Shown: piece after piece, positions 20,502 through 59,600 of the stretch
How positions within the stretch are numbered: position 1 is the first letter of the stretch
Layout: each line of letters begins with the position of its first letter
Source: Laetmonice hystrix
Taxonomy: Eukaryota
Direction: 5' to 3'
Length of the DNA: 64,000 bases
NCBI GenBank assembly: GCA_965235115.1
Contig: OZ249436.1
Location: 11,534,001 to 11,598,000 of the forward strand
Translations under genes and position numbers: made by a program
The notes under the pieces: generated by a model
The model's input: the letters and a program-made list of their open reading frames with translations, nothing else
The model's database searches: none
What the model was told of the DNA's origin: nothing

Positions 20502-20870
20502 TGACTGACAGTTCATGGTGTCGTCTTCAATAGTGATCACGTTTTCATGGGTCCTGATTACACCAGACAATTAGGAGTTCCAGGCGGGACTTGACTACTT
20601 GACTGACAGTTCATTGTGTCGTCTTCAATAGTGATCACGTTTTCATGGGTCCTGATTACACCAGACAATTAGGAGTTCCAGGCGGGACTTGACTACTTGA
20701 CTGACAGTTCATTGTGTCGTCTTCAATAGTGATCACGTTTTCATGGGTCCTGATTACACCAGACAATTAGGAGTTCCAGGCGGGACTTGACTACTTGACT
20801 GACAGTTCATTGTGTCGTCTTCAATAGTGATCACGTTTTCATGGGTCCTGATTACATTAGACAATTAGGA
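20502..20870. repeat. 98-bp tandem repeat, ~3.8 near-identical copies
   Basis: GACTGACAGTTCA at 20503, 20601, 20699, 20797. Confidence 0.95.
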
Positions 20871-28706: not shown

Positions 28707-28832
28707 GTTAAGGTGCATATTATGGGGAAACATGAAAAATCGGTATTTCAAAAAACTTTTGCTGTTTTCATGAAGAGATCCTTCATAAAAATTGCTTGGT
28801 AAACAGTTCCATTTTGCGTGAAAAATCGAAGT
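28707..28832. mobile_element. Inverted terminal fragment of the same Kolobok-like MITE
   Basis: TTAAGGTGCATATTATG...AAAAATCGGTATTTCA...GAGATCCTTCAT, reverse complement of ~33745-33886. Confidence 0.75.
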
Positions 28833-32481: not shown

Positions 32482-32697
32482 TCAGGGTAGGAGGAGCAGA
32501 GTTAGCTGTTCGAAGCGTGTCCAGTTCTCGTGGATAAAACACTGAGTCTCCCAAAGCATGTTGATGAGGACCTGGTCATCTTGGCCGTCTAGTGGGATGT
32601 CCTCCGACAGCTGAGGGCTGAACCTAAAGTACGGAACGTTGATCATGCTGCACCAGGCCCGGGCCCGCTCCACCGGCCGCCCCTCCGACTGGGTGCA
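32482..32697 (-). CDS. PLA2G6: PLA2G6 last coding exon (216 nt)
   Basis: [37 protein letters not shown]...MLWETQCFI...LLLP*. Confidence 0.95.
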
Positions 32698-35600
32698 CTG
32701 TAAGAGAGGGAGATTCAATGTCAGCGAGTCGCTTTAACCTGACATAGTTCACAGATTCAGCAGGCCATCCGACGATGCGGCCCCGGAATGGACATTTCTT
32801 GAAGCTAACCACAACAAACGAACCTGGTCAATGAGTAGCTTTCCTAATGCTGTAGCACCAAACGCGACCTTGGCAATGTCAAATAGTCCCTCAGGTCGGT
32901 AGACATCGAGAGCCTTGACCGGAGTTTGGGGCATCTTGCCCGTTCCTATGGAAACCACCACGTGCAGAGGGCGCACATTATGACCTTGACCCTGAAACAG
33001 TGATAATGACACGTTAGGAAAGGAATGATATCAAGTGCACCCAATAATATCATTATCAAGAAAATCTGAACGGAACAGAGACTCTCTCATCGAAAACAAA
33101 ATTTATGTTGCGAGATATTCGCCTCTGGTGTAGGTCTTACCAAAGATTTGAGTCCCATGTTATACTCGTGTATCTCAGTAAGCACGTCAAGTGTCGGGTT
33201 GTTGGCGATCAGACCTCCATCCAAGAACGCCCCCATGGCACGGAAATATGTCGGCGCCGCTCCACTGCACCGCGCCGCTCGCCACACTAATTGTTCTACG
33301 GGCAAATATATATTTACATTCCTGTAGTCATGGCTGCACATACTTACTTAAAGGGGCATACTATGAAACACGTTTTTGAGGATTTCCGGCAATTATCCAA
33401 CATGACCGTGTATTAGGGATCCAAGTAAATAATCCTACCACAGCATTTTGTCCTCCGACGTGTTTTCGCTGCGTATGCAGCACAAGTAGGTTCTATACGA
33501 CCAAACCTATAGATTTCTCCCAATAGCACATCTCCCGCCATAATTTGGCGGACAACCTCCCATCAACCCGTGTAATTGCATACTGTGTCACATCCTGTGT
33601 GTGCACTCTCTGCATACAGTGCTTAGTCACGTGCTTTGCTTAGTTGTAAACAATTCAGCAGGGGCACTCGATCGCCCGGCATCAGAATGCCACCCAAAAA
33701 ATATTTTACGAAATCGGCAGAGAAGCGGGCAAGGGAGCTTAATAAACTTCGATTTCTCACGCAAAATGAAACTGATAAGTCTGTCTTTGTTTACCAAGCA
33801 ATTTTAATGAAGGATCTCTTTATGAAAACAGCAAAAGTTCTATGAAATACCGATTTTTAACATTTCCTCATAATATGCCCCTTTAATGCATTCTTAGAAC
33901 CCTCAAAACAAAGTACACAATGTGATTGATAACCTTACTAAGTTAGGGTAAGGTAATTCATTCTTCCATGACCCGACAAGTACCCTACAGGGTTTCTTTT
34001 GTTGCTGGGGGATTTTAAGGGGGTTATATAGAGCAAAAAGCATCTCAAACTGCCCATAGCAATGGCATAGTTCTAATTTGATGACAGATCACGGGACATT
34101 GCTTTTTCCCTTGTAGAAATTTTAAAACTTTCACTTGGGCCAGTGGCCTCGACCCGGTGCCTACGGTGGCTACGCATGGCCTATTCAGTACTGTTAACTT
34201 GTTAAATCCTCGGCTGAGGTAGCAGTACTGGTAGATAGACAGGTTTTCGTACCATTTGGCCGAGGAGGAATTTCAAACTGCGTGGGTGGTTGTGTGGAGT
34301 TGTAATCGACGCCAGGAGTTGCGTAGTTACGGAAGAAGTGCAGTTCGGACGGGTGGCGATCACCCATCACCCCAGTTACCAGTACCCTGTCGGTGAGGGA
34401 AAAAATACAGTTCACCATCACAAGACACACGAATAACATCTTACAAACGTCAGCCTTGTGTCGCCTCGCGTCGGAATCAGTTTGGACCAGTGCGCATGCA
34501 GTGGTCTGACTCGTCAATTCGAATAATTCTCTTTTATGATCGAAATTGTACAATTTTATGAATTCTTATGTACGAGACTCTGTTAACTGTGCTGTGTAAG
34601 TGTACGTTAATACCTTGGGTACTCCACATCAGTCATCCTTGTATTTTCTCCAAACTCCCTTTTCATGAATTTCTCGAGCGGGGCGGAGTCATATGGTCTC
34701 TTGCCTGTGAATACTTCATTCTTGAGGCGGAAATACAAACCCTGGCAGTACTGGATTGGTTTACCTATAAAGTTATAAAACACTGCATCTGAACCATGTG
34801 GTTAATAGAAACAGTTTTCACCCACTGTTACCGTTATAAAATACTGCATCTGAACCATGTGGTTAATAGAAACAGTTTTCACCCACTGTTACCGTTATAA
34901 AACACTGCATCTGAACCATGTGGTTAATAGAAACAGTTTTCATCCACTGTTACCGTTATAAAACACTGCATCTGAACCATGTGGTTAATAGAAACAGTTT
35001 TCATCCACTGTTACCGTTATAAAACACTACATCTGAACCATGTGGTTAATAGAAACAGTTTTCACCCACTGTGACCGTTATAAAACACTGCATCTGAACC
35101 ATGTGGTTAATAGAAACAGTTTTCATCCACTGTTACCGTTATAAAACACTGCATCTGAACCATGTGGTTAAAAGAAACAGTTTTCATCCACTGTTACCGT
35201 TATAAAACACTGCATCTGAATCATGTGGTTAATAGAAACAGTTTTCATCCACTGTTACCGTTATAAAACACTGCATCTGAATCATGTGGTTAATAGAAAC
35301 AGTTTTCATCCACTGTTACCGTTATAAAACACTGCATCTGAACCATGTGGTTAATAGAAACAGTTTTCACCCACTGTTACCGTTATAAAACACTGCATCT
35401 GAACCATGTGGTTAATAGAAACAGTTTTCACCCACTGTTACCGTTATAAAACACTGCATCTGAACCATGTGGTTAATAGAAACAGTTTTCACCCACTGTT
35501 ACCGACCAGATGCAGATGCTGCGTCTGTGCCGCCCTCCTTCCGACCCCTACATTTTTACATGATTCGTCTTATCTCGGGAAGAAGTATATATTACATGCA

Positions 35601-38600
35601 CATATATCTGGCATGATACATTTATAAATACATATACTACATGATAACGTGTATAAAAGACGTGTACACTGACCGTGTACTATAGCCAGAGCCAGGATGC
35701 CGCCGGTACTGGTGCCGCCCACCCAGTCGAACAGGTTGCGGATGGGCTGGCCCGTTGCTTTCTCTATGGCGAGCAGAATCTGGATAAGTACCAGTCCTCG
35801 GATACCGCCGCCGTCCAGACATAGTACCTACAGACAGGCTCTCAACATGTGGGCAATAGAATCAACTACACGGGCAACAAATCTCAAATAGAAACTTCTT
35901 CGAGTTTTATGGCACGGTACTAGGTCTGGGGTTTAGATCAGTATAACCGTCGACCTTAACCTGAACGGGACCTACAGGAGGACAGGCGTGGCCAGTGGAT
36001 ACAGTGGATACTATAAGACTTTCCGTACCCTGTCACCTGTCGACCTTAACCTGAACGGGACCTACAGGAGGACAGGCGTGGCCAGTGGATACAGTGGATA
36101 CTATAAGACTTGCCGTACCCTGTCACCTGTCGACCTTAACCTGAACGGGACCTACAGGATGACAGGCGTGGCCAGTGGATACAGTGGATACTATAAGACT
36201 TGCCGTACCCTGTCACCTGTCGACCTTAACCTGAACGGGACCTACAGGAGGACAGGCGTGGCCAGTGGATACAGTGGATACTATAAGACTTGCCGTACCC
36301 TGTCACCTGTCGACCTTAACCTGAACGGGACCTACAGGATGACAGGCGTGGCCAGTGGATACAGTGGATACTATAAGACTTGCCGTACCCTGTCACCTGT
36401 CGACCTTAACCTGAACGGGACCTACAGGAGGACAGGCGTGGCCAGTGGATACAGTGGATACTATAAGACTTGCCGTACCCTGTCACCTGTCGACCTGGAG
36501 GGGAATCCATCCATCGTGTCTCCAGTCATAATTGACGAACCAGACGCACTTGCTGACCTCGTCATTGCCGCAGCCATAGCGACGTCATCAACTATGGCGT
36601 CATACACTGTTATCAACAGAAGAAAGACCGTCTAAGTGATCTTTTCGATGGGGGGGGGGGGGGGGGGGAGGCTTCATGATATCCTAACACCAAATCCATC
36701 AATGAATTAAAAAATACAACAAACCTTTAAATTGTCGCTTTCGGTTATATAAATATGTATTTGAATTACCGAAAGGCATGGTCTGATGTTGATATCAAGG
36801 TATTTATTTTTCCGTCACTCCAAGCGAAAATATAATAAAAATGTAGAAATTTAGAAAATTTAAAAAGATATGCAATAACTTCAATATTGACTACACTTTG
36901 AGACTGGTTGATGGTAACATCTAAACAACTGGGAGGTAGAATTGTGCATCTCATGGCCAAAGGAGGTTGTTATGGACATATGCAGATATAAATGTATGTA
37001 ATTAGTTATCAAATCGATCAGATCTGAGGTGATCTTGTCAGGTTGGGCCCGGCGGGTTCCTGAACAGGATGATTTATGCCTTAGTAATAGATGTGACATA
37101 GATCTTTCATGTTCGCCCACAGTCCTCACATACAACTGTCAATATATACGTGTACATGTAGGTAAATGACACTCAACCTAAGTGGTCACGGTTCACCGAG
37201 TTCGTATCACTCCCCCATGGTAGTGGTAGCATTCATGATATGCTGTCATTCGTCTAAAAATTCCCCTTGGACATTCAGCTCGAGGTTAGCCAAATTCCAC
37301 GAATTTTAGGTCGCTTGAATCTAGATTTTGGTAAAAAGCCAATTGCGCATTTTTCTTTGGACGGGAAATTGAACATAACTGTTGTGAATGTATGTGTGCA
37401 CTTTCACAAGTATGCGATCAGGGACATATGAATGCACTTCAATGTCACCCCTGATGTGTCTGCCCTAAAACCATGCAGTTTACTCCAAAACTAACAAAAT
37501 TAACAATTCCATGCCTGAGAACTTCTCGGCAAGTCATCTCCTCAGGTCAACCGGTCTATTTAACTAGAAGTAGGATCGCCACAACATGGATGAATTATAA
37601 TTACACCAGTGCTAAACTTTCTACAAATAACTTTCTCAGGTTGAAGGCAGATACTAGTTCTATAAATATGGGAAATTAAAGGAATGAGAAAAATAACCAA
37701 GAATTCCAGTGAAGCAGTTATCGTTATTAAGGGTATAATCTCAGATTACTAATCTATAATTCGTGCAAGGTTGATGGAGGGGGCTGAAGGCAAGACTGCT
37801 CATCCAGTAGGCTATAGAGACTTCTAGGACAATTAGTGAGAGAAACTCATTCCTGCAAATAGATGTATCAGGACTCTAAATATTGGGAACATGTTGGAAT
37901 GGGAGGACTTGATTTCTTATTTCTGTAGGTCATATGAAAATATAAAAAAGCAGGTATACAAATAAAAGAACGTTTAAAGAAAGGAAGAAAACGAAATACA
38001 AAACTATTTACAAACGCTGCTCAATGTTAACAAACACAGGCAGAACGTATAAGGTGCAGTGGCCGTGCTGAAAAGATTTCAAATTATTTACTTGCCTTTC
38101 CTGCTGACTGTCAAGTAGTTTAATTAATATTTAACTATCTTAATGTGAATTCATTATTCCCAACGCTTCCTTTCAAAACAGTAATGCTAGAAATAATAAC
38201 ACATAGAAAGGCATAGAAATGAATGTATAAAATATAAAGCCTACCTTATTTTTGACACCGCTTTTTCAAATGCAAAAACATTTAAAAGAAGTTTTCCCTT
38301 TAAAAGTTAATTTTGGCGTTATGAAACGCCAATGTGATATCTTGATTAACATGCTATGACATCAAAAAGTACTAATCTTAGTCTACTTGGTACTGATCTT
38401 AATGTGAATTCATTACTCCCAACGCTTCCTTTTAAAACAGTAATGCTAGAAATAATAACACATAGAAAGGCATAGAAATGAATGTATAAAATATAACTTA
38501 CTTCTAAAGCCTACCTTATTTTTGACACCGCTTTTTCAAATGCAAAAACATTTGAAAGAAATTTTCCCTTTAAAAGTTAATTTTGGCGTTATGAAACGCC

Positions 38601-41600
38601 AATGTGATATCTTGACATCAAAAAGTACTGATCTTAGTCTACTTGGTACTGATCATAAGGCATGATAAATGGCAACTGAACTATCAATAGGGAGGCAAAG
38701 AATATTGAAATAACTACCGGGTTAATTGATGCCAGATTAGTATGATTCATAACCTATACTAATAATAAATCATGCTATCGCAATACCATCTGGAAATATT
38801 CACATGGTTTATATGAACATATTTTTGATACAAGTGTTACGTTTACTTATGTATTAACACTGACCATAACTGTGGAGTAAATCTAACTCTAAAACTTTAA
38901 AACAGTTTTTCTTTTTTGAGGCTGGTGTTCGCATAGCAAAACTCAGTTAGACTTAGGATGTAAATGAAAAGCTCATCTGATAATAAACAAAGCGATTCCA
39001 GCTCGCCTGGAATTTTCAGGAGTTCATGACGAAATCAAATACTATAATGATTACCATATGCTATTGGTATATTGGTTATACATACATATTCCATATCGTA
39101 CATGTCTACGGTTTATAGGCCGGCCAGAGGCGATGTTTGCTGCCAGCGCGTACGTATATATTGGGACATCTATCAATCATGTCATGTCAAAACTTACTTC
39201 TCTTTGGTGACTCCGGAGATGTACTGTGAGCAGGAGTTTGACTGGGAGGACAGCCATTGAAGTCTCCCTCCGGGCTACATCCAGGCAAGCACGTGTCCAG
39301 CCTTGGGGTGCAACGTTCTGCTCCTACACCATGGAGCAGGTGTAACATCGTGTCCCTGCAACATTACACATACATAATGTATCAAACTCAGGGCTGTACG
39401 GCCATTATCGGGACTCTTTCCAGTTTACACAAAAAATACATAATGTATAAAAGTCAGGGCTGTACGGGCATTATCGGGACTCTTTCCAGTTTTGAGAGTT
39501 GTTTTTAAAAAAAATCATCAATCATTCTGTAACTTTTCGTGTAATTGCCGGACTTTTCCCGGAACTGAGCGATTATTTATTAAGAAGAGGCACCAATACT
39601 ATTGAAGAGAAATGTCAATGGACTAGGCTAACTTGCCTGTGTTTACTCTGTATACTATTATAGAGAAATGTCAATGGACTAGGCTAACTTGCCTGTGTTT
39701 ACTCTGTATACTATTATAGAGAAATGTCAATGGACTAGGCTAACTTGCCTGTGTTTACTCTGTATACTATTGAAGAGAAATGTCAATGGACTAGGCTAAC
39801 TTGCCTGTGTTTACTCTGTATACTATTGAAGAGAAATGTCAATGGACTAGGCTAACTTGCCTGTGTTCACTCTGTATACTATTATAGAGAAATGCCATTG
39901 GACTAGGCTAACTTGCCTGTGTTCACTATATATCGAAGAGAAATGCCAATGGACTAGGCTAACTTGCCTGTGTTTACTCTGTATACTATTGAAGAGAAAT
40001 GTCAATGGACTAGGCTAACTTGCCTGTGTTTACTCTGTATACTATTGAAGAGAAATGTCAATGGACTAGGCTAACTTGCCTGTGTTTACTCTGTATACTA
40101 TTGAAGAGAAATGTCAATGGACTAGGCTAACTTGCCTGTGTTCACTCTGTATACTATTATAGAGAAATGCCATTGGACTAGGCTAACTTGCCTGTGTTCA
40201 CTATATATCGAAGAGAAATGCCAATGGACTAGGCTAACTTACCTGTGTTCACTCTGTATACTATTATAGAGAAATGCCAATGGACTAGGCTAACTTGCCT
40301 GTGTTCACTCTGTATACTATTATAGAGAAATGCCAATGGACTAGGCTAACTTGCCTGTGTTCACTCTGTATACTATTATAGAGAAATGCCATTGGACTAG
40401 GCTAACTTGCCTGTGTTCACTCTGTATACTATTATAGAGAAATGCCATTGGACTAGGCTAACTTGCCTGTGTTCACTATATATCGAAGAGAAATGCCAAT
40501 GGACTAGGCTAACTTACCTGTGTTCACTCTGTAACGTGGCAGCCAGATGACGAGGGCTGTGGCCCTCCTCATTACGAGCATTCACATCTGCCCTGAAGAC
40601 AATTAACGCCTGCACCAGATCGACATTGTTCACCTGAATAAATGTACATGTATTTAATAATTACTACCTTCATATGCGAGGCGTCAGCGCATGGACCAGA
40701 CAAGGTCAACACATACATCAGATCCTGCCAAAGGCTCACACATATATCTTGGAAGATCAAACGACAAGTTGGGTCACATACAGATAAACTAAACGAGTTC
40801 TTACTCATACCACGGGTCCTTCGGTTCATTGAAATGTTTTTAAATGAATTTTTCCGCATTCGCATGCATACATGTCATCATCTTGTCAACAATAGCAATA
40901 ACACACACCATAGCAACAGCCGCAACATTAAGGCAAGCATTGGTCCACTGATGCGACTTGGCAGGAAAACTTCTATCCTCTCTTATTTTATTGCCGAACG
41001 GCTAATCATTGTGTTGGTTTCCCACAGCTTGGTATAGTCATCGCCAGATGGCGCTAACAAAACACTCCTCGGTTATTTCTCACTGATTGCTAGTACACAT
41101 GCCCCCACTCAGAGGGAAGCACAGTAGAGCTGGTGTCCCGTCAGCAGGGAGGTCGGGATTTTATTTCCTACGTTAGTTCGGGACCAACGCGAAGCTCACT
41201 GCACTAGGGAATCGGGGGGGGGGGGGGGCAAGGGGCCCGGGCCTCCCTTAAATTTTCATTAAGGGGCCCGGGCCTCCCTTAAATTTTCATTCTCTTTTTT
41301 TTAAGAAGATGCATTATTCGGACCCTGAAACCAGGATTCCAACAAAATTCTTCAAAAAAAAGGGGGGGGGGGGAAGGAAAATTGCCCAGCGTCATGTTGC
41401 TCCTCAGTCATCCAGGAGCAACATAACTCTGGGCCATGCAGCATTGAAATAGACCAAAAGGGACCCAAAATGGATATAATCACAATAAAATCATGGCTAA
41501 AATTTTTTTTAGGTGGGCCCCCCTTACCAAAATCCTGGATCCCCCACTGTCATTGCATATGACAAGTTTTGTAATATAGCTATCTCCCCATCCCTAACTC

Positions 41601-44600
41601 TAACTGAATCTGAAAAAAAAAAGAGGGGGGAAAAACAACAAACAAAAACACAGGGCGGTTCGACATTTAATGGGCAAAGCTTTGGTCCCCAACTAGTGTT
41701 GGAATAAAAATTCTGCGTGCGGGGTGTGGACGACTTCAGCCGAGACGATGACCCCTGCTGACACGCGGCCACGCTCCACATACAGCAATCCGCCCACGGT
41801 CACGCACTCCGCCCTTCATGACAACTCAAGCTATCTCAAGTCAATAGAAAATTGTACAGTCTTTTTTCGAGAAAGAATTTTCTATACATGCTCCAGAGGA
41901 TGCAAAACGCAGGTGACGACGTTTTACATCTTTAATTGAAATTGAACAAATCCCAATGACGATGAAGTGGGTTCCCCGAGATGCTGTAACGTTATGGTCG
42001 CTGGAAAATTCTGCAGAGATATTGCGCACTAACACATTAATATCCCACTTCCCCTTTTCAGGGGAAATGGGATCTTAGAATATTGTAGGTATGGTTTCGT
42101 CTACACGATTAAAGTTGTGTTCGTCGTTGTAGTTAGACAATAGTCGTAAACTTCTCGTTTAGTTTTCAAGATATCGGGATGAAACTTTGAGGGAGAAGTC
42201 ATCATGGCTTGATGTTATCGACATACTAAGTATATAATGGCATATGTCATGTGACACCATGACGTCATGAAGATTTCATGTTTGGTACCACTTGGTACAG
42301 TACCAGGAGAAGCCAGACAAAAATCATTCATGCCATCTTACTTAGCCCTTAGAGGTCTATAATTTTATCACATTCATTTGACCTCTGACCTTTGGCCTTT
42401 GCCAGATCCAGGCCAAAGGTCAAAAAATGATAAATTTGCTACTTCCCGCCCAATTTTTGAAGAATCTTCACCAAATTTGCAGAGGGAATCTCTATGGAAG
42501 GCCTCATGAAGTTACGCCGTTTTAAAGAGATCTGACGTATTTCACTGAGTCACGTGACCTCAAAGTTGTTCAATTTGCCATTTCCCTGCACAGAGGGTGT
42601 ATCTTTGCTATTTTTCAGAAAATCTGGAGGAAACCTAGTGAACACATTCGCCTTGACATGTTTATTAACAAGCTATTTTTCAATTCAATTCAATGGACTT
42701 TATTGCGGACACATCTACATAGTATGAGCTATGTCCAGGATTACGTCAGGTTACGTAACTGAATACTTTATGGAGTTTTTCATCACCTCAAAATAACGAT
42801 AACATGTTTTAGGAAGTGAAGGGGCTCTGTCGTGCAGTGGTTGTTAACATTACATGCAAGACCCTTAACGAGAAGGACACGCATTCGAAATCCTGGTGGA
42901 TGCAGAAAGAGTTTTTTCAGATCAAAAATTCTATCAAATTTTCTATACAAACACAAGATTTAATCATAATGTATGATTTTTACCTACTGACCTAATTAAA
43001 TGAGGTCATCAGAGACAGGTGATGCCTCATGTAGTCAGGGTTCCTGTGCAACACTGGGTTAGACTCATCTAATTAGACCTCATGGTGAACGGATCCATTG
43101 TTGCTATGCAACAATGTGTCTCGTTAATTCCCAAATTACCTTTGTTGGTCAGTGGTGATTTAAAGCTGCATTGTTACGTCATCAGTAAATAATGTGCGGC
43201 AGAATATTTTATCCTTCCCGACAGGTTACTTCCGTCAACGTGAGCGTTTTCAAAATTTAGTTTGATTTGTTGATAAATGAACAAAATATAAATGGTGCTG
43301 GGGATTCCCAAATGCCTTCCGGAAAGGAGTGTAAGGAAGAATTGAATGACTCTTCAAAATTTGGCCAGCAAAACTTCCTCTTTGTTAGTGTATGTCAACT
43401 CAACCGCGCCTTCAAAAAGTGGCCGGCTACAGTGATGGATCAAATACTACTGGAGGACGGCTTCTGTCGACATTTCACACTTTTCTAACAACTTCGTTTT
43501 AACAGCATGCCAATACACAAGACTAACTGAATTCTTCTTTCAAATTATAATTCCACGTATTCATCAGAATAATTATCAGGGAGTATAAATTTTTTAAAAG
43601 ACAAGAAAAAAAAGATTAAATACCCCAATGACATAAGCTACATATCTTTAGAGATTCAACGGACATGCATCAATGCGGTCCGTTCAAGGTCACTTGGGTT
43701 TCATTTAAAATATCACTGCGGAAAGTCCTACACACTGGAGAGTGGCCGTCAGCTGGAGATTTTATCTACCAACCATATACTGCAAGTCCATTTATGTATT
43801 AGGTTGCTATCTTTTTCTCAAATCGACAATATAACATTTGAAAGGGCGTTATCTGGTAGACGTAGCTACGTCTTAGATACGTCTGACCTAACTCAGAGAT
43901 TCGACTACCAGCATTAATGCTATTATCTGCACCATCATTGCAAACCTCATATTGTCAAAAGTACATTACATAAAACGTACTGCTACTGCAAATGACGTGA
44001 ATTTGGCCATGGGACATTTTTCCTCGCTGTCCTTTTTTTCCAGGTCAGTCATTACTTTGGGTGGTGGTGTGCTCCCAATAAAGGTACACAATAGATCTCG
44101 GGTCATGAAACCTACTTTACTAAGGTCAAGTGAACGTGTCTGCATAAAACACTGGTAACTGCAAACCCATGACTTTTCTTGCCCTATTTTAGAAACCTGG
44201 CCACTAAACAGATTTAGAAATAGAGAGACACACAGAGATATACTTGTTTGTTTCGTTAACTTGAAGCCCCAATAAACATCTAAATTGTAGAAAATGCAGG
44301 GTGTTTGGAGACAGGAAGGTTAAATCATTATATCGTGGGCACCGCTCCACCCCTGAAAACGACAGAAAATAAATGAGTATTTCAGGGTTTGAATGAACTG
44401 GATATCTGATGTCCCTTTACTAAATCATGCATGCATGGGGACCTTTCCGATTTATGGAGTTTCAAATGGCTATCTTCTTGAGAGCCCCCCTCCTTTACTT
44501 CCCATCTTACCATGGGTGCTCTCGTTGACCCCTCGACCATGACAAAGTGACCCCAGACCCCCACCCCCACCACATTCCCTTACCACCTAACTGACACACC

Positions 44601-47600
44601 AATATTTCAATATAACTATGGTAGATATCCCACTACCGCGATTTCTTTCATCGCTAAAACCAAACGTTCACCCTCCAGAGGAGAACGGAAGACGCGGGAA
44701 ACCAGCTTCAATGAGATCATTACAACGCCCCTCCCGCACCCCCACCCCCACCCCCACATCACCTTCACCCACCTCATCAACCGGGAAACCATTCCACTCC
44801 CATGATGACTCAGCCTACTGAACAGACATTTATCATGGCTATTTACTACATGTTTTAAGCAATAAAAAGAACATTTTTAAAACCCCGACTCTCACTCATC
44901 CTGGATCGATACTCAACCTCAACTATAGACAAATAGACTGACCAAGGAGACTACACACACGACGTTTTTCACGTAGGAGTATGTGATATCGTCGATAGCA
45001 ATCCGACGACGTGACAAACCAAACGAAATTCAGAGTTAAACAGGAAGACAGGAAGAAACAAAAACTCTGAAATCTTTTACTAGGTGGCGACAATTTAGGA
45101 GTGTTTCTCCTCCTTAACGCCTCACCGCAATATGTTTTCAGGTTACCAAGTCCAAATTTTGATGTCATGGGAGTGGCACATCATTTATACAGGCTCGTAG
45201 AGAGGCTGGGAGAGTCACAATGGAGTCCCATTCAACTTGAAAATATTACGAAAATAGCAATTCTTTCATAAATTTGAATACGTCATCCTTGTATTGGTGG
45301 CCACCATAGACATATGATACAAAGCAAACTATAGTATACCTCCTCTAATTAACCGACTCTGATTAATACATCGTTCATTAAAGATTGCGGACTTTGGTTG
45401 ACTCGTCGAGGTTCGATCCCATTATGTACAATTGATCACGGAATGGGTCGGGCATAGGCGCAGGAGCCGAGGGGGCAGGGAGAAGGCCCCCCCCCCCCCC
45501 CCCACCAATCAAAATTGGAGGTGGGGGCCAAAGTATCTTTCCGCCCCCTCCCCAACACCATGCTCCTTATCGAGGCCTACCTATATAGGACGGCCACAGC
45601 ACATATAATGATTTAACCTTCATTCATTTCAGTCAGAATTTGATCTCCAGATGCCGGAAAATACCGTTTTGGGCCTTCTAATTTAAAAAAATTTCGGGGG
45701 AAGCTCAATTGGACCTGTGGAGGTCCCTTACTGCCAACCCCCAACCCAACTCAACCTATGTTTTAGTCACATACATCACGATGGAGATTGTGATAATGGA
45801 GGAACAAAAAAATGTCCCATAACCGGTATTAGTGTCAACACGTGAAAACTGCAAGGTCCTTGCCGTCGGTGGCGCCCACTTGTCCCGATTGTAGACGGGG
45901 CCCGTATTCGGGGTTGTTCTGCTGTCATGAATGACGTGAAATAAGACTGCCCTATCTGATCGGGACCGTAAGCAGTGGAGGGTGGACGGTAGTAAGGGTG
46001 AACCCCATCATAAAGTCGCAATGAGACCGCAGGGCAGAGAGCACACTCACCCCAACCCCCTGCCTACCAGCACCACTTAGAATCTTCTTGAACGTACAGC
46101 TGGCCTTTTGATTAATCTCATCTGGCAACATCTCTGTCAGGCTATGCTAACAGACACCTCAGAACTTGTCATGCATAAAAGGTCATGCCCAAACCTGATG
46201 GATGTGTACAAAGTACATCGCTTTCCATCTTCTCGTGCTCCGCATAATTTCTTTTGGTAAGCAATTATTTCTACGTCGCAACCACAGTACCTGGAGTTAG
46301 TTTTACAAGACTTTACAATGGTCACTTTCGGTTCCTCGACATCATCCCGACTTTCACTCCAATTTTCTAGTTTAATATTTTTTCCTTTCAATTTGGTTAC
46401 CCGTCATCTTACACGCTTCCCTTTTCTTTACTTGTATTTGGACTTTTCTGTGTGTGGTGTTCTACAAAATCTCCAACGTTTGAGTTTTGTCAATATTTGG
46501 GTACATCTTCCTTTCTCACAATAGCATTACTAATACAACAAGCTTGTGAAGCTTATAGCCCCCACCACGAACTATGAATTCTTGAAAAAACGATGCACGA
46601 CTTCAATTGATCTTTGAAGGGCAAAGGAAATATTGTCAAATGAAACTTTGTAAACTTAGTAAAGTTCTATGCAGTTGTATGTACAGCTTGATGGCGATAT
46701 CCGGCGTAAAGATGCATGTCTCTGCAATAACTATACAGTTATGTACAGTTTGATAGTGTTATCCGACATGAAGTGTTTTGTAGATATGCTTGACCTCGAT
46801 TGACCTTTAGAGGTCAGTTATGTACAGTTTGATAGCGTTGTCTGGCGTGAACCAACTGAGTAGGGACAAATTATCTGTGGGTCCGGGGACTATACGTACT
46901 TTTCGCACGCTTGTTGCCCCTCATGCATTCTGTCAGAAAGAACGAAATCCAGAAAATGGCAGAGTTATTGCTTCGAACTTCTTTAAATCCAAGATGGCCA
47001 CCAAGCCATATATTTGGCCTGTGTCCTCCTTAGACTGTCCCTGGTTATTATGTAATGTTTCATGCAAGATTAGATGTTGTTATTTTCAACTGGTATGGAG
47101 GTACAGGCCATTAAAATATGCATGACCTTGATTGACCTTTCAAGGTCGCTCAAGGTCATGGAAAATGACGCCAAATGAAACTTCATATATGACTTCCTAT
47201 CTATCAATAATAATAACTGTTGCCTTATCTTGCACCGTTTTCGAGATATGAGCCAAAACAGTGTTATGGGGGGGAGAGTAAAATATTAATATGGCCGCCA
47301 TGTCGCAATATTTGCTCTGATCTGGCAATACATTAGCATATACATTACCCCTCATATACACCTTCTTTCCACCAAATTTGAAAGAAATCGGGATCGTTTT
47401 GTCCGAGTTATTGCTCCAAATGTGTTTACATCCAAGATGGCCACCACGCGGCCATTTTGACCTGCCTCATCCGTGGACTGTCCCGGATCATGATGTAATG
47501 TTTCATGCAAGATTATGTCGTTATCTTTAACTGTTTTGAAGATCCAGGCTATTGCAAATATGCATGACCTTGATTGACCTTTCAAGGTCGCTCAAGGTCA

Positions 47601-50600
47601 TCGAAAATGGCGTCAAATGAAACGTCATATATGACTTCCTATCTGTCAATAATAATAACTATTGCCTTATCTTGCACCGTTTTCGAGATATGAGCCAAAA
47701 CAGTGTTATGGGGGGGGTAAAATATTAATATGGCCGCCATGTCGCCATATTTGCTTTGATCTGGCAATACATTGGCATATACATTGCCCCTCATATACAC
47801 CTTCTGTCCGCCAAATTTGAAAGAAATCGGGATCGTTTTGTGTGAGTTATTACTCCAAATGTGTTTACATCCAAGATGGCCACAACGCGGCCATTTTGAC
47901 TTATGTCAAAAATATCTTTGACCTGCCTCATCCGTGGACTGTCCCGGATCATTATGTAATGTTTCTTGCAAGATTATGTCGTTATCTTTAACTGTTTTGA
48001 AGATCCAGGCTATTGAAAATATGCATGACCTTGATTGACCTTTCAAGGTCGCTCAAGGTCATCGAAAATGGCGCCAAATGAAACGTCCTATATGACTTCC
48101 TATCTATCAATAATAGTAACTATTGCGTCATCTTGCACCGTTTTCGAGATATAAGCCAAAACAGTGTCATTGTGGGGGTCAAGAAACAAATATGGCCGCC
48201 ATCTCGCCATTTTGGATCTGAATTGAAATTTTATTGTGATGCATATTGGCCCTCATTATGCCTCATCCCTGCACCATGTTTGAAAGAAATCGTGATTGTT
48301 TTGGCTGAGTTATTGCTCAAAATGTGTTTTTATCCAAAATGGCCGCCAAGCGGCCATTTTGAATGATATCAAAAATCTGTTTGACGTGCATCATCCTCAG
48401 TTCATCCCTGATCCTTGTGTGAAGTTTCAAAGAAATCGACCCATACACTTCTGAGAAATCGCTGTCTACGGACATACGGACGGACGGACGGACGGCCGTA
48501 CGGACGGACGGACGGAGGTCGAATTATAAGCCCCCCGTTGTGGGGGCTAAAAATTCCCCGGGGGCACTTTGATAATGATTGATGTATTATAACATCCACG
48601 GATTGTTGAGCACATAGATGAACCACAACCATGCGATGAAATCCGTATAAATTATCATGATAACACCTGCCAAATACGGGATCTGAGGCATTAATGAAAA
48701 ACTTTCCAGTAAATCGTCAGTGGAGTTCCACTCTTGGGTTCCCAGCGTTTCGCCCACAGTTTGCATCGGTCATATTATTACAGATATCAGTATAACCTTG
48801 GTAGCAATGCAGTTCAGGGTTCACAGCCAAGGTCATTTGCATTTGAAGTGGTATGCCTTGAAAAGGGTCACATACATACCTGTAATGAATTACGGGCATT
48901 TTAGGTGACTTCTTCAAAGTGGTTTGCGATGCCTTACTAGGCCTATAATAATGTGTGGGAACTTATAATAAAACATAATTAGATATGATCAGAAACAACC
49001 TCTGCAAACTGGTCAAATCAGATTTTGATAAGGTTGACCTGTTTGGAAAAAGACCATGATTGGCCAATTTAGGCGCCATTACATATACAACCCCAATTTG
49101 TTGGGTTTGGCCAGCTGACGTCTAATTCTGGGGTCTAAAAATGGGGTGCGGCCATCATTTGTTTACATCTACAGAGACTAGAAAGTGCTCTCAGAACGAC
49201 CTTGAAAGAGAGTGAAAGATGAAAAAACATATAACATATTTGCCGAATCACGACACAAAACTATCAACGGGCCAGATCTTGCCTCCTTTAAAGAGGGGGG
49301 GGGGGGGTCATGATTTACCTCTGTAGAAACTGCCTTGTCATCTTGTTCTGAAATGTTTCACTGAAAGTGAACACGAGTACTCTTTATGCTCCATAGAAGA
49401 AAAACTCACCAATAGATCGGTACTGGTATACTGGAGCACGATATACTGTGTCGCCTTATAGAAAAACGAGGAAAGGATGTGGAATGCAGTACTTGTAGAC
49501 TTTGGTTCTGACAAAGGGCATGGTTTCATAAGGTCGGCGAGATTCTACTTTTCCAGAATAAAAGAAGCTCGTTCATCCGTAGTATACAATATGAGGGTTA
49601 ATTCATAGTGGTCGGAATTTAGATTGATCTTCATGAACGCTAAACAACTGTGGCAAAATAAATGGTGCAATTTACTCATACTATAGACCTTTGTGGGACT
49701 GTCGCAACACAATCAGCATTCGCCATGCGAAGCTAATGTGTTCTCCACTGATTGATGGCCTTCTGGGTCAAAGGTTCTAGGTAAAAGTGATAAACCAACA
49801 TTTTTGTAGACCGACCTGCTGGATCACTTCAAGATCTTTTTCCAGCAGGTTTTTTTTCAGGATCTCTTTTCTTTTTCTGTGATCAATAATTTTTCCTTCG
49901 GGAAGTTATATTTCTTTCCTTTTTCTTGTTGTAGGAATTTCTTTCGTGTATGAAATGTTGGACATGGACATGAAGTTATATTCTTCTAGAATGCCCTTGG
50001 TCTGCGCTATTGGACTCTTTCATGAGGAACACTTTTCTTCTTGGGCCCAACGTAAAAATGTTCCGGACATAGCAGTGAGCATCTCATACGACAATATAAA
50101 TTTTTCAGACTCCTGTGGTTCACCCATCGGTGATTGACGGAGACTAATGTATCTGTCAAAATTCATGCCATCTTTGAAAACCACTAGACAGGTGTATATG
50201 GCACCTGCAAGTCCAGGGCCTGCTACATGAATACTGTATCTAGAACCCGCGCGACACCACTCCCACTCAACCAGTATCTGGCACACAAAGCAGATCGACT
50301 CGTAAAGAATGCTTATTCAGAGTTGACAGAAAACTTACTCATGGTCTTTTGACAGCCAATTATAATTAACCGACGACATAACAGCCGCAATCGACAAGTT
50401 CTTAAACTAATTCTAGGTGCTCTCTTGAATTCCGTGACAGGTAAATAAATATATGGCCGGGAGCGGGAGCTACAGTCTGCCCGCGCTAACCTGAGCCCAA
50501 TGCATAATCATGCATGATATGCAAGGTCAGCTTTGTTGACTGCCGGCTGCCGGTCAATGGGATAGCTGGTTGCTGGAGACAACCCACGTGTAGGGGGCAG

Positions 50601-53600
50601 CACATGGTTTGACCACAGGCAGCCAGCTTCCAGCCACTGTCACTGAACCTGTACACACTGGTTTGAATGACGGGCCCCTCGCGTCCCCCATCAGAACTGG
50701 GCTAACCCTCACCGGTAATGAGACCCCGCCCCGGGCTGTAAGGAACTTCTGATAATATCTGGCCTCTGGTTTATACCGTTCAGACCATTCTCGGAGAGGT
50801 AATGTCTCTGCTCCCCTCTCTGTGTTGGTGACCACAGGGCCCCTGACCTCGGCCAACTTACAAGTCATTCATGCCATGTGAGAGAAAGACAGTTAGATAC
50901 TTGATGTAGATCCGTGGTTTTCGCCTGGTACTCTGGTTTCCAGTACGGCCCAACCCCGCCTACCCATTCAGTGGTTGCCTCCGCTGCAGGAAGATGGCGC
51001 CACTGGGATTGAGGAGACCGGCGTGAAAGTCGCGGCGACCATGTAGATCCGTGCTTTTCAGCTGCTCTACTGCGGCTGTTAATGTCGTCGGCTAATTCTT
51101 CGACAAATATAAAGAATCGGAGAAAGAATTGCCAATGACAAGTAACTTGTGCTGACTGACTTCATGTTTGTTGTATGCAGTACAAAAGATAGGTCAAGGT
51201 TAGGGGAAGGCCTGGCGCCGTGCCACATACTGCAGGCCCAGGTATAGCTGTTCGGCTGGGTTGGGCGTTTGGTGAAAGGCTAACACCAGCCTTATCTGAT
51301 GACCAGTCCACGTGTCATGACACAATCCACGGCGCCACTTGGGGGCCATCCAAAGTAAAGACATAAGACATAAGAAATAAAAAGGAATTGCTTTGCGCTT
51401 CACAATAAATCACCAAACTTTGATAAACATACTGGTATACCAGTGTACGTCGGAAGCTCTTTTTCGATGGGCGGAACATATTTCACCTCTTGAAAGCAAG
51501 CGGTTCAACTTTCAAATATTGACACCGGGACCCCTATAATTCGAATTTTTACGTAGCTTTGGGCTCCCAGTCAGTGGCGTAGGAAGGGAGGGGGGCGGGG
51601 CCATCCCCCCCCCCCTCCAATAAAACAAAGTTTTGAGTATGTTTTGCCCCCCTCCCAATATTAAGCTCTTTGGGACGATTAATAATAATTAATAATTTCC
51701 ATACTTTTTCCAAATATAGGCCTAATAGAACTTAGAACAATGTAAGAGACACAGTATCACGCTGGCATAGTAGAACAGTGTTTCCACCTGATCTAGCGAA
51801 TTAAGCAATCAGAAACCAGAGAATTAACACTCTCTGGTTAAAGTCAGAGTTTTTAACCACGATTTTAACCAATTTAGTTAACTTAACCACTTTCTTGAAA
51901 CCGGGGCCTCTTGACACCTGGTACGCGTGTCATACTGGTATCAGCTTAGAGCTACTGCTCTACTCTAGCATGCAGAAGCTACTGCTGTACTCTAGCAGAA
52001 GCGGAGTAAGGTCTTGAAACCGGGGCCTGGCAGCGTGTCATATTATTGGTATCAGGGTACTGCTGTACTCTAGCAGAAGCGGAGTAAGGTTTTGAAACCG
52101 GGGGCTGGTAACGTGTCATATTATTGGTATCAGGGTACTGCTGTACTCTAGCAGAAGCGGAGTAAGGTCTTGAAACCGGGACCTGGTAACGTGTCATATT
52201 ATTGGTATCAGGGTACTGCTGTACTCTTGCAGAAGCGGAGTAAGGTCTAAAAACCGGGACCTGGTAGCGTGTCATATTATTGGTATCAGGGTACTGCTGT
52301 ACTCTAGCAGAAGCGGAGTAAGGTCTATAAACCGGGACCTGGTAGCGTGTCATTTTATTGGTATCAGGTTACTGCTGTACTCTAGCAGAAGAGGAGTAAG
52401 GTCTAGAAACCGGGACCTGGTAGCGTGTCATTTTATTGGTATCAGGTTACTGCTGCTCTAGCAGAAGTGGAGTACGGTAGAGGTCAGAGTTACATTGTTT
52501 TCTCTACCCTTCTGCAGGGACATGTGATTTGCAGATTTATTTTCATAATGTTCCGTTAGTCTGTTCAGTTTTGATCACGATTTTTTGCTTATCCTGACTG
52601 ACTGATTTGCCCCCCCCCCCCCCAACTAAAGACAGCTTCCTACGCCTCTCCCAGTTTCTTTCCTCTTCTTTTTCCAAAATTCCTCATCTGCTGACGTCCT
52701 ACTTTTCGCAGCCCCCATGAACTGATCTGTATGGATTGCGGTCATGATAAGTAAAGTATGACCAGAAACTCATAACACGCAACATTCAGGTATTTCTGTC
52801 ATCTCATATTATTTTTTAAAACTTAATTATAACGGTATAAAACAGCTCAGATAAAAAAGTGCGCATTAGGACCGTCTCACATACCAACTTGTGATGATAA
52901 GTCATATTTTGTATAAGTATTTACGTCAGGTGATTCATGATGAAATTACCTGATGAATTCCATGCCAACGTCATAATCGGGGCAACCATAGTGCGGTCAC
53001 ATGTTCTCATAAATCATTGGCAACAACGTACAGAAAACCGAAAACAAAAAACATTGTTAAGGTCGTTGAACCTAAACCATACATATATGTAGGTAATACG
53101 AACTCGTACGTTCGACATAAGAAGTAATACGTACGAGACAGCGATGTATACGGATACGGATTTTTAAAAACACATTACAAATATAGGGACTGTGTCCACT
53201 CATGCGGGTCCGGACACGGCGACCGATCCGACACAGTCCCTATATTTGTAATGTGTTTTTAAAAATCCGTATCCGTATCCGTGTCCGCATCCGGACCTGT
53301 GGACACGCAGCCGAGTCCACAGGTCAGGATGCGGATACGGATACGGATACGGATTTTTAAAAACACATTAAAAATATAGGGACTGTGTCCACTCATGCGG
53401 GTCCGGACACGGCGACACAGTCCTATATTTGTAATGTGTTTTTAAAAATCCGTATCCGCATCCGTGTCCGCATCCGGACCTGTGGACACGCGGATACGTT
53501 CGGCACAAGTCGCACGTACGACTTAAGCCTCTTTTCCACTTTCACGGTTTTTTACGCCGATTCACGCCGATGTCAGATCGTGGCAAGTCATGGGGGTGTC

Positions 53601-56600
53601 GTAGTCGGGGGGAGTCCTGAATAATCGCAAAAGTTCGCAACCAAGTCGTCGTCTTGTTTTCGTTGTGGCACAAGTTTCAATATGTTCAAAAAAAATCGTG
53701 GTGGTTCGCGAGCTCGTCACGGATCGTAATATGTCTTAGCAATGTCGTAGTCATGTCGTAATGGTGTCCTTACAGATTGTGTTAGTATCGTGATTGTTCG
53801 TCAATATTCGTAGGCAATCGTCTTGTGGGAAATGGCCAAGATTGTGGAAGATGTAGTCACGATATGCTATACGAATACCCACGACATAACACGATGTGAA
53901 CACGAACGGAATGAGACAGACCATCTTGTCACTGTCTTGGCAAGTCGTGACATATCGTACTTATGTCGTAGTTGCTCGTACCGATATCGTGATTGTTCGT
54001 GTCAAATCGTGCCCGTATATCGTACAAGTATAGTGGCTTTTTTGTGCTTTTCAGGCGGACGGATCGCGACTCACTACGATTAATAGGTCATGAATCGGCG
54101 TAAAAATCGTGGGAAGTGGGAAAGGGGCTTTAGTAATTCGTACTTACGACTCACTCATACGCACGAGTATGGTACTCCGTGCGCCCTCTGCGGGACAAGC
54201 GCCTATAGCTAGCCCAACTGCCAAGCTAGTCCAACTGTCTAGCTAGCCCAACTGCCAAGCTAGCCCAACTGTCTAGCTAGCCCAACTGTCTAGCTAGCCC
54301 AACTTTCTAGCTAGCCCAACTGTCTAGCTAGCCCAACTGTCTAGCCAGCCCAACTGCCAAGCTAGCCCAACTGTCTAGCTAGCCCAACTGCCAAGCTAGC
54401 CCAACTGTCTAGCTAGCCCAACTGTCTAGCTAGCCCAACTTTCTAGCTAGCCCAACTGCCTAGCTAGCCCAACTGTCTAGCTAGCCCAACTGCCTAGCTA
54501 GCCCAACTGTCTAGCTAGCCCAACTGTCTAGCTAGCCCAACTGCCTAGCTAGCCCAACTGCCAAGCTAGCCCAACTGTCTAGCTAGCCCAACTGCCTAGC
54601 TAGCCCAACTTTCTAGCTAGCCCAACTGTCTAGCTAGCCCAACTGTCTAGCCAGCCCAACTGCCAAGCTAGCCCAACTGTCTAGCTAGCCCAACTGCCAA
54701 GCTAGCCCAACTGTCTAGCTAGCCCAACTGTCTAGCTAGCCCAACTGTCTAGCCAGCCCAACTGCCAAGCTAGCCCAACTGTCTAGCTAGCCCAACTGCC
54801 AAGCTAGCCCAACTGTCTAGCTAGCCCAACTGTCTAGCTAGCCCAACTTTCTAGCTAGCCCAACTGCCTAGCTAGCCCAACTGTCTAGCTAGCCCAACTG
54901 CCTAGCTAGCCCAACTTTCTAGCTAGCCCAGCATGCGCTCCACATGATGCACGTTATACTATAATACCCTTCTTGAAGAAGTGGAGACCAAGGCAACTGC
55001 TCCTTCTTCAGGAAGAAGAAAACATGAGTATCTAGTGCTGTAATAGACGGTCGGCAGAGGGAGGGGGAGAAGTGGGCATGGGGACTTACTAACTCACACG
55101 TACCGGATATTAAGTCGTGCGTACGACTTAATAAGCTATGACATACTAAGTCATACGTACGACTTAGTAGGATGTAAGTACGACTTAGTAGGTCGCATGA
55201 GTTAGTTTGACATAGGCCTACGTATGACTTAATAAGTCCTATGCTCCTCATAACTAAAACAGTTGACCCAACTAGGTTAAATAAATCTGGATACTCGACC
55301 GCCTGTTACTAAGAAGCATACTGTACGCACTTGTTTTATATGTACAGCAATGACTTTCCTCTACAACTCCAGTATCAGTTCTCTCTAGTACGACGATTGC
55401 CAACGATAGACGCTGATTATCAAGTGCTTTAGGAGTAACTTAACAATCTTACAAAGCACAAGAAGACACATTGAGTAACTAACATAAGAACATGAGAACC
55501 CTATGTCGGCAATCTCAATAGAATCTTATCGTTTTATTTCCTAAACATTTATAATTATGTACATAATCCGTGTCAATCCGTCTTTAAATCAAGTATGATA
55601 TCAGTTTGATTAAAACTCATGTACACTATCTACCTTAATTCAAATCGAGACTGTGCCGATTCCTCTGGTTCGAGATTTTCCAAGAGTGAGTTCAGTATAA
55701 CATAACTTTATTCCAATTATCTAATTTTAGTAACTTAATGACTAGTTGCCTAAGTAGGTTTTATATAGGAGGGCGTGAAGACGATATGAAAACTGTAAAC
55801 CATCACTTTCGGTCATAAATATTTAAGTGTTATATGTTACCTGAAGTTTTAACATGGTGTCATTAGGGTTCAAAGGTAAGTATTTGAGGAATTTGGGGTG
55901 CCACTTTAATGTTGGAAAAAGGCCTTTAAAAACCTACCACTCCACTTCCTCCATACACTGATCTCTCTTGTTTCTACATGTTTCAATCTAAAAAAGATAC
56001 TAAGATTTTTTCAAAGAATTCCTATCGAGAACTATCCTTACGTGGAACGACTACCCGTATATGCGTGTGGGTTTGCAGGTTGGGGATAGCAGAATGAGGC
56101 CTGCGAGAAGCAGCAGTCGAGGTTAAAACAAGGGTACCACGAAGAATGGAGGATGCAGTGCTGAAGAGCCTTATGCAAAATTAGCAGTAAAAGAAATGTG
56201 AGAGATCCTTATTATATGGTCACACATCAGTCTGCCTTTTTGCGTTTGCAGTGGAAAGTAGATGCAATGCATATTCCATATTAGCTGACGGTAACTTACA
56301 CTCTGTCCAGACGATCTCCTTTTGTTTTCAGTAGAAGCAAATAGTTTGGGCGATGACTGTAGAAAATCATGACAAAAACATAAAATATACAAACTGCACC
56401 CATGTATAATAACAATAACCTCAGCAACAAGAGAGAGAAAGCAAGAAGAAAGTCTTCAGAATGCTGCAATCTTTTTATTTGTGCGATATGTTTAAAAAAC
56501 ATTTTAAATACCTTACAGAGCCGTACCCAGCGGCCAGTGTCAAATTTTTTAGTTGGTCATAGTAGACAGAAATAGGAATACAGTCTACAATATTTGGTAT

Positions 56601-59600
56601 GTTATCACATTTTAGATACCTGAATAATTTGTGTCTACTTTCAGTGTCATGGGGTCAATCACCTCCGTGCATTTTCAGAATGGGCTGTGTATATATAGCC
56701 CTTTGACCAGAACAAGAAATGTTTTTAACTGTTCATACCACCGGTAGGCATACAAACACCACTGTGCATCCCTCCACAATTATACATCAACTAATCGAAA
56801 CTCATTTCAACGTAGCTCGGAGAAAGGCCCAGCAGTGGTCAGCCGACCTGTATACAGTAAAATTCTCCGCAGTGATGTAACACATCACGGAGACGGGCAT
56901 TTGTACACAGCCGTTTCAAGAGTTAGGCGAGCGCCGAGATACTGTCTGCGAAACGCGGGTTCATGACCTGCCATATCCTGGCCTGCCCACTGGAAGACGG
57001 CCACTAAATGAAACATTAATCACTGCCAAAACACGGAAGGAGAGACGACAAGATCAGCTGCCAAGAAAGTACCTTATGCCTGCCACACACTGTACGATTC
57101 CCAGTCGGCGGCAAATCACACGCCCCGCACACTATACGACTCGAGTCATAAACCCGCGCACACTTTGAGATCCGACTGTGATCCGATTCAAAATTCGATA
57201 GGCTGTTTGCGACCCTTCCGATCGTCGTAGGCGAGTCATATGCGAGTCATAAGCAAGTCATAAGCGGGTCGTAAGCTCCAGAATGCGATCGGATCATAAG
57301 AAAATGGTATAGTGTGCGGCGAACATGTGACAAATATTGCGACTATTGCTGAGTTCAGACAGGATAGACCCGATTACTGGTCCTGTCTATCGTTGACCCG
57401 TTATACGGACGGGTTGGGAGGTCTGCATCCCATGAATTGATGGGGAACCGTCCATGGACTGGTACCTCAGCCCTTATAAAATGAGGGGCCCTCCGACTGA
57501 AAATGTTTGGGAATATAAAATGCCATGGATGCTATTTCCCGGCTTCTCAGCATCAAACTAAATAGCTTTCGGTGCCGACGTTTTGGTCAAAATTAATGTA
57601 TTAATCAGTGGGGGCTCCAGGAGGGCTTGGCCCCCCCTTAGATTTTACTTTTTTGTATGAAGATGCATTAGTACCATCACAATGAAATCCTGCCGAGCGT
57701 AGCGAGGCTAAAATACTTTTTACGTGGGCTCTAGGTTATATCCCCCTGACACCTCATACTTTTGTGGTACATGTACCACTTAGATATTTCGATTGTGAAC
57801 AGTCACGTGAGGTTCATCTTTTTCCAAATTTTGCAAAACAGATCACCAAGACTCCAGATCGAGTGTATTGACTTGGATTTCACGTAAACTAACGGTAAAT
57901 ATCACAATATTTGGCTGGACAGGATTGGATGGTTGACCTACCTGAATGGCAAGGTGAAGGGCATTGTTTCCATGACAACTGATGGCCTCCGCTGAGGCGC
58001 CTCTCGAGAGGAGGGCCATGACACACCCAAGGCGACCTCTCCGTATCATGATGTGCAGTGCCGTTTCCCCATCCTTGTTAGGTATGTCCAGGTTGCAACC
58101 CAGATCGGATAGGATGTAGATACACTGCCAACAGTAAGGTATTGTTGATTATAATGCGAAGAAATGTTAAATACTGTAAAAATACTGTTCAAGAATTCGA
58201 TTTCTCACGTGAAATGACGACACTGTCCTAGCTTTTGTTTAACCTATTCCTCGTCAGAACCACATTACAAAACCAGTGGAAGAACCGTTTTTACTAGATT
58301 TACGTAGAGTGTCTCTTTAAAATTTAAATATCTAATATTGTACATTTATTACTTAATGACTGGTGTCAAGTACGAGCTAAAATATCAGAAAGATCCGTCT
58401 TATCATCCAGTAAAAGGGATCGCAGTCAGGAATGAGAAACGTGCCATGATATCATGGTGGACATTCACCACTAAGATTGACAGCATTCTGTGGTTGGGGC
58501 GTGGTGGAGACAGAGGTAATGAACCATGCTAGTAGGTAGCACCGTGGTTTCGCACCAACCCTCTGCCCCAATCCCATACAATATAACACTTGCGCCACTC
58601 ACACTCCTTCAGTCCATCTTCTTCCATTTTGAAATTTTAAAACATCAATAAAAACAATTCAGCAGTCGGTTGAAATAGCTACCGAGGTACTACAGTTAAG
58701 AACCGAACGCCTGATGAAGCACTGAGCATGTTAACATGCGCTGCAGTGGGCACTGCTCTATTATGGAGGAGTTGGCACTTGGCAGAAAGTGAATCTTTTC
58801 TGCTGAGGAAACAAGGTGCTGCTGCCAAAAGGGTGTTTGTCACCGTATACCAAAACGTAAGAGTGTCTGAATTACTTTCCGCTCAGAGTTCTGTGAACCT
58901 GGTGCTAGCTTCAGTAGATATTGGACAGTTTTCAAGATGGCCATATGCAGGCCAGACTGAATTACGCCAAGCATGAATCCTCATGTAAGCAATAAACTTG
59001 CAAAATGTGCACGCCCTTTTCCTATTGTTCTGAACAAAACGATGTTCTTGGACTGCGACCAGAAACACAGGTCAGCACATGAGACGTAAACATCCATGAA
59101 GCATCCCTGAAAGGTTATTGACATTAACGCCATAGCCTAAATTCTACGTTTTCCGCACCTGGGTGCAGGGCTGTCCAAAGTTGCGGCTGCTTGGTGCAGT
59201 GCAGCACATCGAAATCTGCGCACCAGAACTATCAAGCCCAGCAAATTAGCAGCGATTTTGTCAGAAAGTAGGCGAGAGTAGGCGGCAGAGGTGTTTGGAA
59301 ACAGACGGCCAACTATAATCGGTTCAAATTAATGTCAAATCTGCCAAACTTTATCCCCAAAAAGTACCGTCTCCGTTTCCATCTCCATGGGAGATCAAAT
59401 GCGTCGTTATACAGTTAAATCAAAGATTAGGCCTAGGCCTGGTGGGTGGGGTACTCTGGGAGCGATGAGCAGCCCATATTGCGGTTCGTTTTTGACGACA
59501 GCCGTGTCAGGGTGGGTCGGGGCCGTGATGACCAGGGTGCCGCAGCACGAGGTACGAGCCCCTCAAACTTCTCCCTGGTGTTTTTACCTGTTCCAAGGCG

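Follow-up and report, generated by a model that had tools for sequence, protein, structure and literature searches.

The window, the whole 64-kb stretch of DNA that was analysed, carries on its minus strand a gene spanning 32482..62827 that we identify, from homologue mapping and splice signals, as an iPLA2-beta/PLA2G6 orthologue. The gene model has 12 exons and 11 GT-AG introns, the shortest of 126 nt, and its frame runs uninterrupted over 615 codons as far as the stop. The window holds these 12 exons, and the gene extends beyond it on the 5' side. Of the 137 proteins fetched, 31 entered a quick maximum-likelihood tree with SH-aLRT support and without bootstrap. In it, the PLA2G6 protein groups with those of Capitella, Lamellibrachia and Ridgeia and five further proteins (SH-aLRT 99); the host is thus most likely an annelid, and on the strength of this tree we rejected a mammalian source for the window. 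Its genome assembly amounts to 627 Mb in 35 contigs.

Five exons, all on the minus strand, frame the region of interest. Exon 4 (40518..40633, 116 nt; numbers count the exons inside the window) encodes the last ankyrin repeat, exon 5 (39198..39355, 158 nt, phase 2 to 1) follows it, and exon 6 (36479..36606, 128 nt) belongs to the linker between the ankyrin and patatin regions. Exon 7 (35674..35827, 154 nt) matches Pfam Patatin (E 4e-10) and contains DGGGxRG and GTSTG, which we take to be patatin motifs, while exon 8 (34614..34764, 151 nt) forms part of the patatin core. Three tandem arrays, here called A, B and C and likewise read on the minus strand, lie among these exons, with limits, unit sizes and match percentages taken from Tandem Repeats Finder. 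Array A (39596..40533) consists of 56/51-bp units (56 bp x17.0, 91% matches) arranged in a 275-bp higher-order repeat and is seeded by the donor of exon 4, CAG|GTAAGT. It covers the final 16 nt of that exon, and its unit is made of those 16 nt, the donor and the start of the intron, such that the true donor is followed by 16 extra donors, 15 of them GC and one GT. Array B (35949..36496; 90 bp x6.1, 98% matches), on the other side of exon 5, is built in the same way from the final 18 nt of exon 6, its donor AGG|GTACGG and the start of the intron; all five of its extra donors keep GT, and both ends of the seed unit are marked by an 8-nt direct repeat. Array C (34772..35504; 61 bp x12.0, 97% matches) is wholly intronic. 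Its unit is the 3' end of its intron without the AG, and 7 nt (TTTATAG) separate the last unit from exon 8, which leaves the true acceptor AG outside the unit.

In each case, the unit is local sequence repeated head-to-tail, inflating an intron that is otherwise short (281, 201 and 238 nt for the introns holding A, B and C once the arrays are subtracted). An earlier note on this DNA had placed the three arrays at or within 8 nt of PLA2G6 exon-intron boundaries, and this is correct, A and B overlapping exon ends and C lying 7 nt off. Its wider statement, that the arrays sit on splice junctions, holds for A and B, which span their junctions and duplicate exon end, donor and intron start together, but not for C, which includes no real splice site. 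Two more arrays, with 78-bp and 17-bp units, are found deep within a 17-kb intron of the same gene. A search of the genome with the 6-kb region, which skips simple and common words and so lends little weight to a local origin, returned the region itself only, and when the three units were compared by local BLAST with the window and with the sampled loci described below, a single 17-nt match lay outside the arrays. Contigs from three runs of one sample, possibly the assembly's own source and with intron sequence included, have a depth over arrays B and C several-fold above that of the unique flank, and on this basis an assembly artefact was rejected for these two arrays. The same contigs reveal a second haplotype and a variant array B unit.

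The placement of arrays next to exons was also examined away from PLA2G6, using exon matches of three Pfam families (kinase, CCT and myosin loci) at 46 loci chosen blind to repeats; six CCT loci were picked as compact genes. Junctions were called with splice-site matrices self-trained on this analysis' own junction calls, with two matches containing internal stops and all domain-terminal ends excluded, and the null model reduced each array to a single unit, positioned at random inside its own locus. The tested set comprised 44 loci with called junctions, covering 271.5 kb, 170 junctions and 51 arrays. A junction is found no more than 50 nt away for 12 of the 51 arrays, compared to 4.9 expected (about 2.4-fold, P 0.0009); allowing 20% for unseen exons raises the expectation to 6.2 (P 0.007), and counted per locus, 9 of 20 loci have such an array versus 4.0 expected (P 0.0025). 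For junction-spanning arrays alone, the enrichment is not significant (5 versus 2.3, P 0.07), and the seven other near-junction arrays stop 31-46 nt off, with none at 1-30 nt. Two manual corrections, a missed donor in locus L040 and an array edge in locus L034, enter these figures; before them, the counts were 11 versus 4.9 near junctions (P 0.003) and 4 versus 2.3 spanning (P 0.18). Within the PLA2G6 gene itself, three of the five arrays touch a junction or come within 10 nt of one, with a P of 0.002 that is post hoc. Tandem repeats are therefore enriched at exon edges in loci independent of PLA2G6, and such placement is habitual in this genome, the excess being 2-3-fold in what is a small sample.

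These counts also bear on chance or assembly error as an account of the locus, with arrays either landing beside exons at random because the genome is rich in minisatellites and its introns are short, or being created by faulty assembly. The raw material is plentiful, as 40 arrays make up 9.6% of the first 238 kb sampled, but random placement does not reproduce the excess near junctions by any of the three ways of counting, and the depth over B and C in the one sample argues against an error of assembly. We regard this account as extremely unlikely.

A functional micro-exon requires, among other things, a short, stop-free segment between an AG and a GT or GC whose length is a multiple of three. 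The earlier note had reported such segments in the array units, and they are indeed there: an 18-nt segment in 13 A units, a 33-nt segment in 5 B units and an 18- or 12-nt segment in 11 C units, stop-free in the respective intron phases of 2, 0 and 1 (the 12-nt segment of C being read by hand). In array A, 12 of the 13 segments end in GC rather than GT. Nevertheless, the presence of such a segment in each unit is not beyond chance. Each unit offers 17-84 AG..GT/GC pairs, in line with a caveat already raised in the note, and some stop-free AG..GT pair with a length divisible by three occurs in 73% (A), 96% (B) and 86% (C) of shuffled units; among 11 near-junction arrays used as controls, 9 contain one. 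These controls comprise five spanning and six abutting arrays, one of which is 63 nt away, with those of loci L006 and L040 left out. Their best-scoring pair is in frame in just one of the 11 and in none of the five that span a junction, and pooling them with the PLA2G6 gene gives 4/13 (P 0.32); a tendency of the best segments to keep frame more often than shuffled sequence thus finds no support in this sample.

One result favors use of the segments and is obtained when only GT donors are allowed. The best pair is then in frame and stop-free in all three PLA2G6 arrays (15 nt in A, 33 nt in B and 24 nt in C), for which shuffling gives a probability of about 0.2 per array and about 0.008 jointly, in a window that was selected for this very property. 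Only the 33-nt pair of array B coincides with a segment proposed earlier, and its score of 11.4 ties with that of an out-of-frame 8-nt pair (11.2). In array A, the copied donor and the best acceptor enclose 11 nt, which is out of frame.

Neither splice sites of real-exon strength nor workable flanking introns accompany the proposed segments. The proposed acceptors rank at the 6th (A), 10th (B) and 7th (C) percentile of called sites, and the proposed donor of array C scores below nearly all called donors. When judged against 78 called exons, the 33-nt micro-exon of B is stronger than only 5% and the 18-nt one of C than only 1%, while the 18-nt one of A exceeds 9-47%, depending on the GC penalty used. 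The introns that would separate segments in neighboring units measure 38 (A), 57 (B) and 43 nt (C), whereas all 45 donor-to-acceptor gaps are at least 122 nt; the earlier concern over these short single-unit introns was well placed.

Tolerance of the protein for inserts was assessed on the 132 full-length sequences among the 137 homologues. At the array C junction, which falls in the patatin core, none of the 132 has an indel within 10 residues, and at the array A junction, length is conserved in 83, with a one-residue difference in 35. Ahead of the array B junction, on the other hand, the linker varies from -20 to +78 residues, which makes the cassette of B the only plausible insert. The final residues of this cassette would match those of the true exon. 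Among the reads, however, the variant array B unit differs by two changes, both of which alter amino acids in the proposed frame (read by hand). Plain extension of the exon to a downstream donor would run into a stop immediately in A and 5 codons further on in B.

Taken, as the earlier note had suggested, as a generator of variable-length micro-exon isoforms, the arrays would be spliced in as cassettes of 6 (A), 11 (B) and 6 or 4 (C) residues, with isoform length following copy number. The GT-only result and the variable linker at B speak for this idea, as does the report that in some human paralogues, internal tandem repeats located where exon meets intron have yielded new introns and alternative transcripts with RNA support (PMC2812944). 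Yet the weak acceptors, the competing out-of-frame pairs in A and B, the short single-unit introns, the rigid patatin core at C and the amino-acid changes in the variant B unit all count against it, and with in-frame pairs this common in shuffled units, we consider it highly unlikely that the arrays generate variable-length micro-exon isoforms. The repeats of the human paralogues are similar in that junction repeats provide cryptic sites, but comparison with the 132 homologues reveals no evident new exon or intron in the PLA2G6 gene.

The mammalian parallel drawn by the earlier note is a loose one. Long and short isoforms of mammalian PLA2G6 differ by a 54-residue insert through exon skipping (PMC11621833), and the exon concerned matches exon 5 between arrays A and B, which aligns with a segment absent from two short bird isoforms. 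The gene and the region are thus the same. The mammalian event is the skipping of one whole exon, though, and in the present annelid gene the 158-nt exon 5 would shift the frame if skipped.

A closer counterpart is found in amphioxus, where boundary-spanning tandem repeats termed mirages are described from Adh3, the globins BflGb6/BflGb9, TnC and PGBD5, with splicing reportedly unaffected in Adh3 and the globin genes, and have already been put forward as a source of new exons and introns (PMC3087553, PMC3902484). Arrays A and B resemble mirages in having units of tens of bases over an exon-intron boundary (16 and 18 nt of exon, respectively), in occurring several to a gene and in retaining AG- or GT-like signals in most copies. 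The units of all three arrays (56, 90 and 61 bp) fall within the 10-160 bp described for mirages (PMC3087553), and their copies are as alike as expected of them (91-98% matches). As in mirages, many but not all copies carry a splice signal, every extra copy in B having GT and those in A, with one exception, GC. Array C abuts its junction rather than spanning it, and we do not class it as a mirage. The present host also differs in being an annelid rather than a cephalochordate, and the amphioxus work extends to tests of splicing and of length instability, whereas the PLA2G6 arrays are read here from genomic sequence. Among other annelids, intronic minisatellites are described in the earthworm metallothionein paper, none of them junction-spanning in the portion of it that is accessible. 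A literature search, mostly without subscription papers, found no genome-wide count of junction arrays in any invertebrate.

The 37-bp VNTR in intron 7 of human F7 offers a guide to how such arrays may be spliced. Splicing is reportedly undisturbed there, the sole donor in use is the one furthest upstream, and competition comes from perfect-consensus pseudo-sites alone (PMC1557585). As in F7, the first unit of A and of B lies over the exon-intron boundary, with the true donor followed by pseudo-donors. The units are longer here (56 and 90 bp), F7 has pseudo-sites that do not differ from the true one while 15 of 16 in array A are GC, and use of the first donor, demonstrated in F7, is carried over to PLA2G6 by analogy.

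The GC state of array A raises the possibility that selection has acted, such that junction arrays persist only where mis-splicing keeps frame or the copies have been silenced. The donor of A is a perfect consensus, and the change from GT to GC in nearly all of its copies is suggestive of silencing; furthermore, the non-spanning control arrays stop 31-46 nt from their junctions as if repelled by branch-point or pyrimidine signals. Against this, a single mutation would suffice for the GC state if homogenization spread it, and in five control junction arrays AG or GT is intact in all the copies found (16, 11, 14, 5 and 6), including 14 of 14 around a strong donor, as it is in all five extra copies of array B. 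The absence of any frame bias among the controls also runs counter to the earlier proposal that only frame-keeping arrays are tolerated. In light of this, we think selection of either kind an improbable explanation.

Our preferred reading is that A and B are mirage-type minisatellites and C a junction-abutting intronic minisatellite, very probably with the extra splice sites as a silent by-product. Each array would have started with one local tandem duplication, seeded in B by the 8-nt direct repeat, after which slippage or unequal exchange would have expanded it and homogenized its copies, as the higher-order repeat in A suggests. When a duplication falls over a donor, the first copy would stay in exon context, and when an array lies ahead of an acceptor, the last unit would stay beside the AG; with the contexts of the first donor and last acceptor kept, the coding sequence would be untouched. 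By analogy with F7, the first donor and last acceptor would remain in use, and the extra sites would be silent or yield rare transcripts that carry the early stops described above for A and B and are probably degraded. The in-frame AG..GT segments would then follow from the numerous AG and GT choices in each unit. Normal splicing of the PLA2G6 gene is thus inferred from other animals, and the arrays most likely pad introns instead of creating mini-exons. Against this explanation stand the in-frame GT-only best pair in all three arrays, the perfect consensus of the copied donor in A, which is the sole class of site competing in F7, the variable linker at B, which could accept an insert, the non-significant enrichment of junction-spanning arrays taken alone and the self-training of the splice-site matrices.

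As they stand, the PLA2G6 arrays are one more case of a described repeat type. Arrays A and B extend mirages to an annelid, in which they look common, with five junction-spanning arrays at 170 sampled junctions. A bolder version, which we rate as very improbable, holds that minisatellites are born preferentially at exon edges through a process linked to splice signals and that some are used, array B lengthening the ankyrin-patatin linker by at least one in-frame cassette of 11 residues in proportion to a polymorphic copy number, and the perfect copied donors of A having been silenced by a selected sweep from GT to GC. If this were true, an exon would here be in the course of arising from a junction repeat. 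The gain of introns through tandem duplication is an old question with few cases caught in the act, and this genome is suited to measuring the rates at which duplicated splice sites come into use, are silenced or become new introns and exons.

At array B, the six 90-bp units (window 35949-36496) copying the donor of the PLA2G6 exon at 36606-36479, a second haplotype is visible in the contigs over window 35897-35973, where six letters are absent at 35897 and the sequence differs behind 35938. The contigs also hold a variant of the array B unit carrying two substitutions.

Several other arrays occupy the window. Three of them, with units of 461 bp (x3, 46962-48362), 78 bp (x6, 51980-52478) and 17 bp (x43, 54206-54930), lie deep in the 17.3-kb intron of PLA2G6, distant from known exons, while a 94-bp x4.5 array (9968-10390) and a 98-bp x3.8 array (20502-20870) fall outside the gene. 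A 44-bp x31 array (28831-30232) has a strong GC skew, and its minus strand retains three long open reading frames. Further Pfam matches in the window are a COX6B exon (2871-3245, minus strand) and a zf-RVT retroelement fragment (15189-15623, plus strand). Elsewhere in the genome, at G000:C4:25253376-25298170, at least nine near-identical kinase exon matches recur at a spacing of ~5.5 kb and form a tandem gene-segment array.

Among the sampled loci, four further junction-spanning arrays were observed in myosin exons (L034, L037, L038 and L044), with units of 61, 34, 59 and 57 bp, respectively, and the AG or GT is retained in all copies found. A single CCT gene (L026, G000:C1:73111500-73118700) has three arrays at acceptors (locus coordinates 658-2039, 2665-3794 and 6725-7201): an 86-bp x16 array duplicates an acceptor and 69 nt of exon, and the remaining two end 34-36 nt upstream of an acceptor. 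None of the five other sampled CCT loci has arrays at acceptors.

Seven non-spanning arrays (in L006, L013, L018, L026, L038 and L040) end 31-46 nt off the junction, and none was found at 1-30 nt in the sampled loci. Small as these numbers are, the arrays look as if splice signals bounded them.
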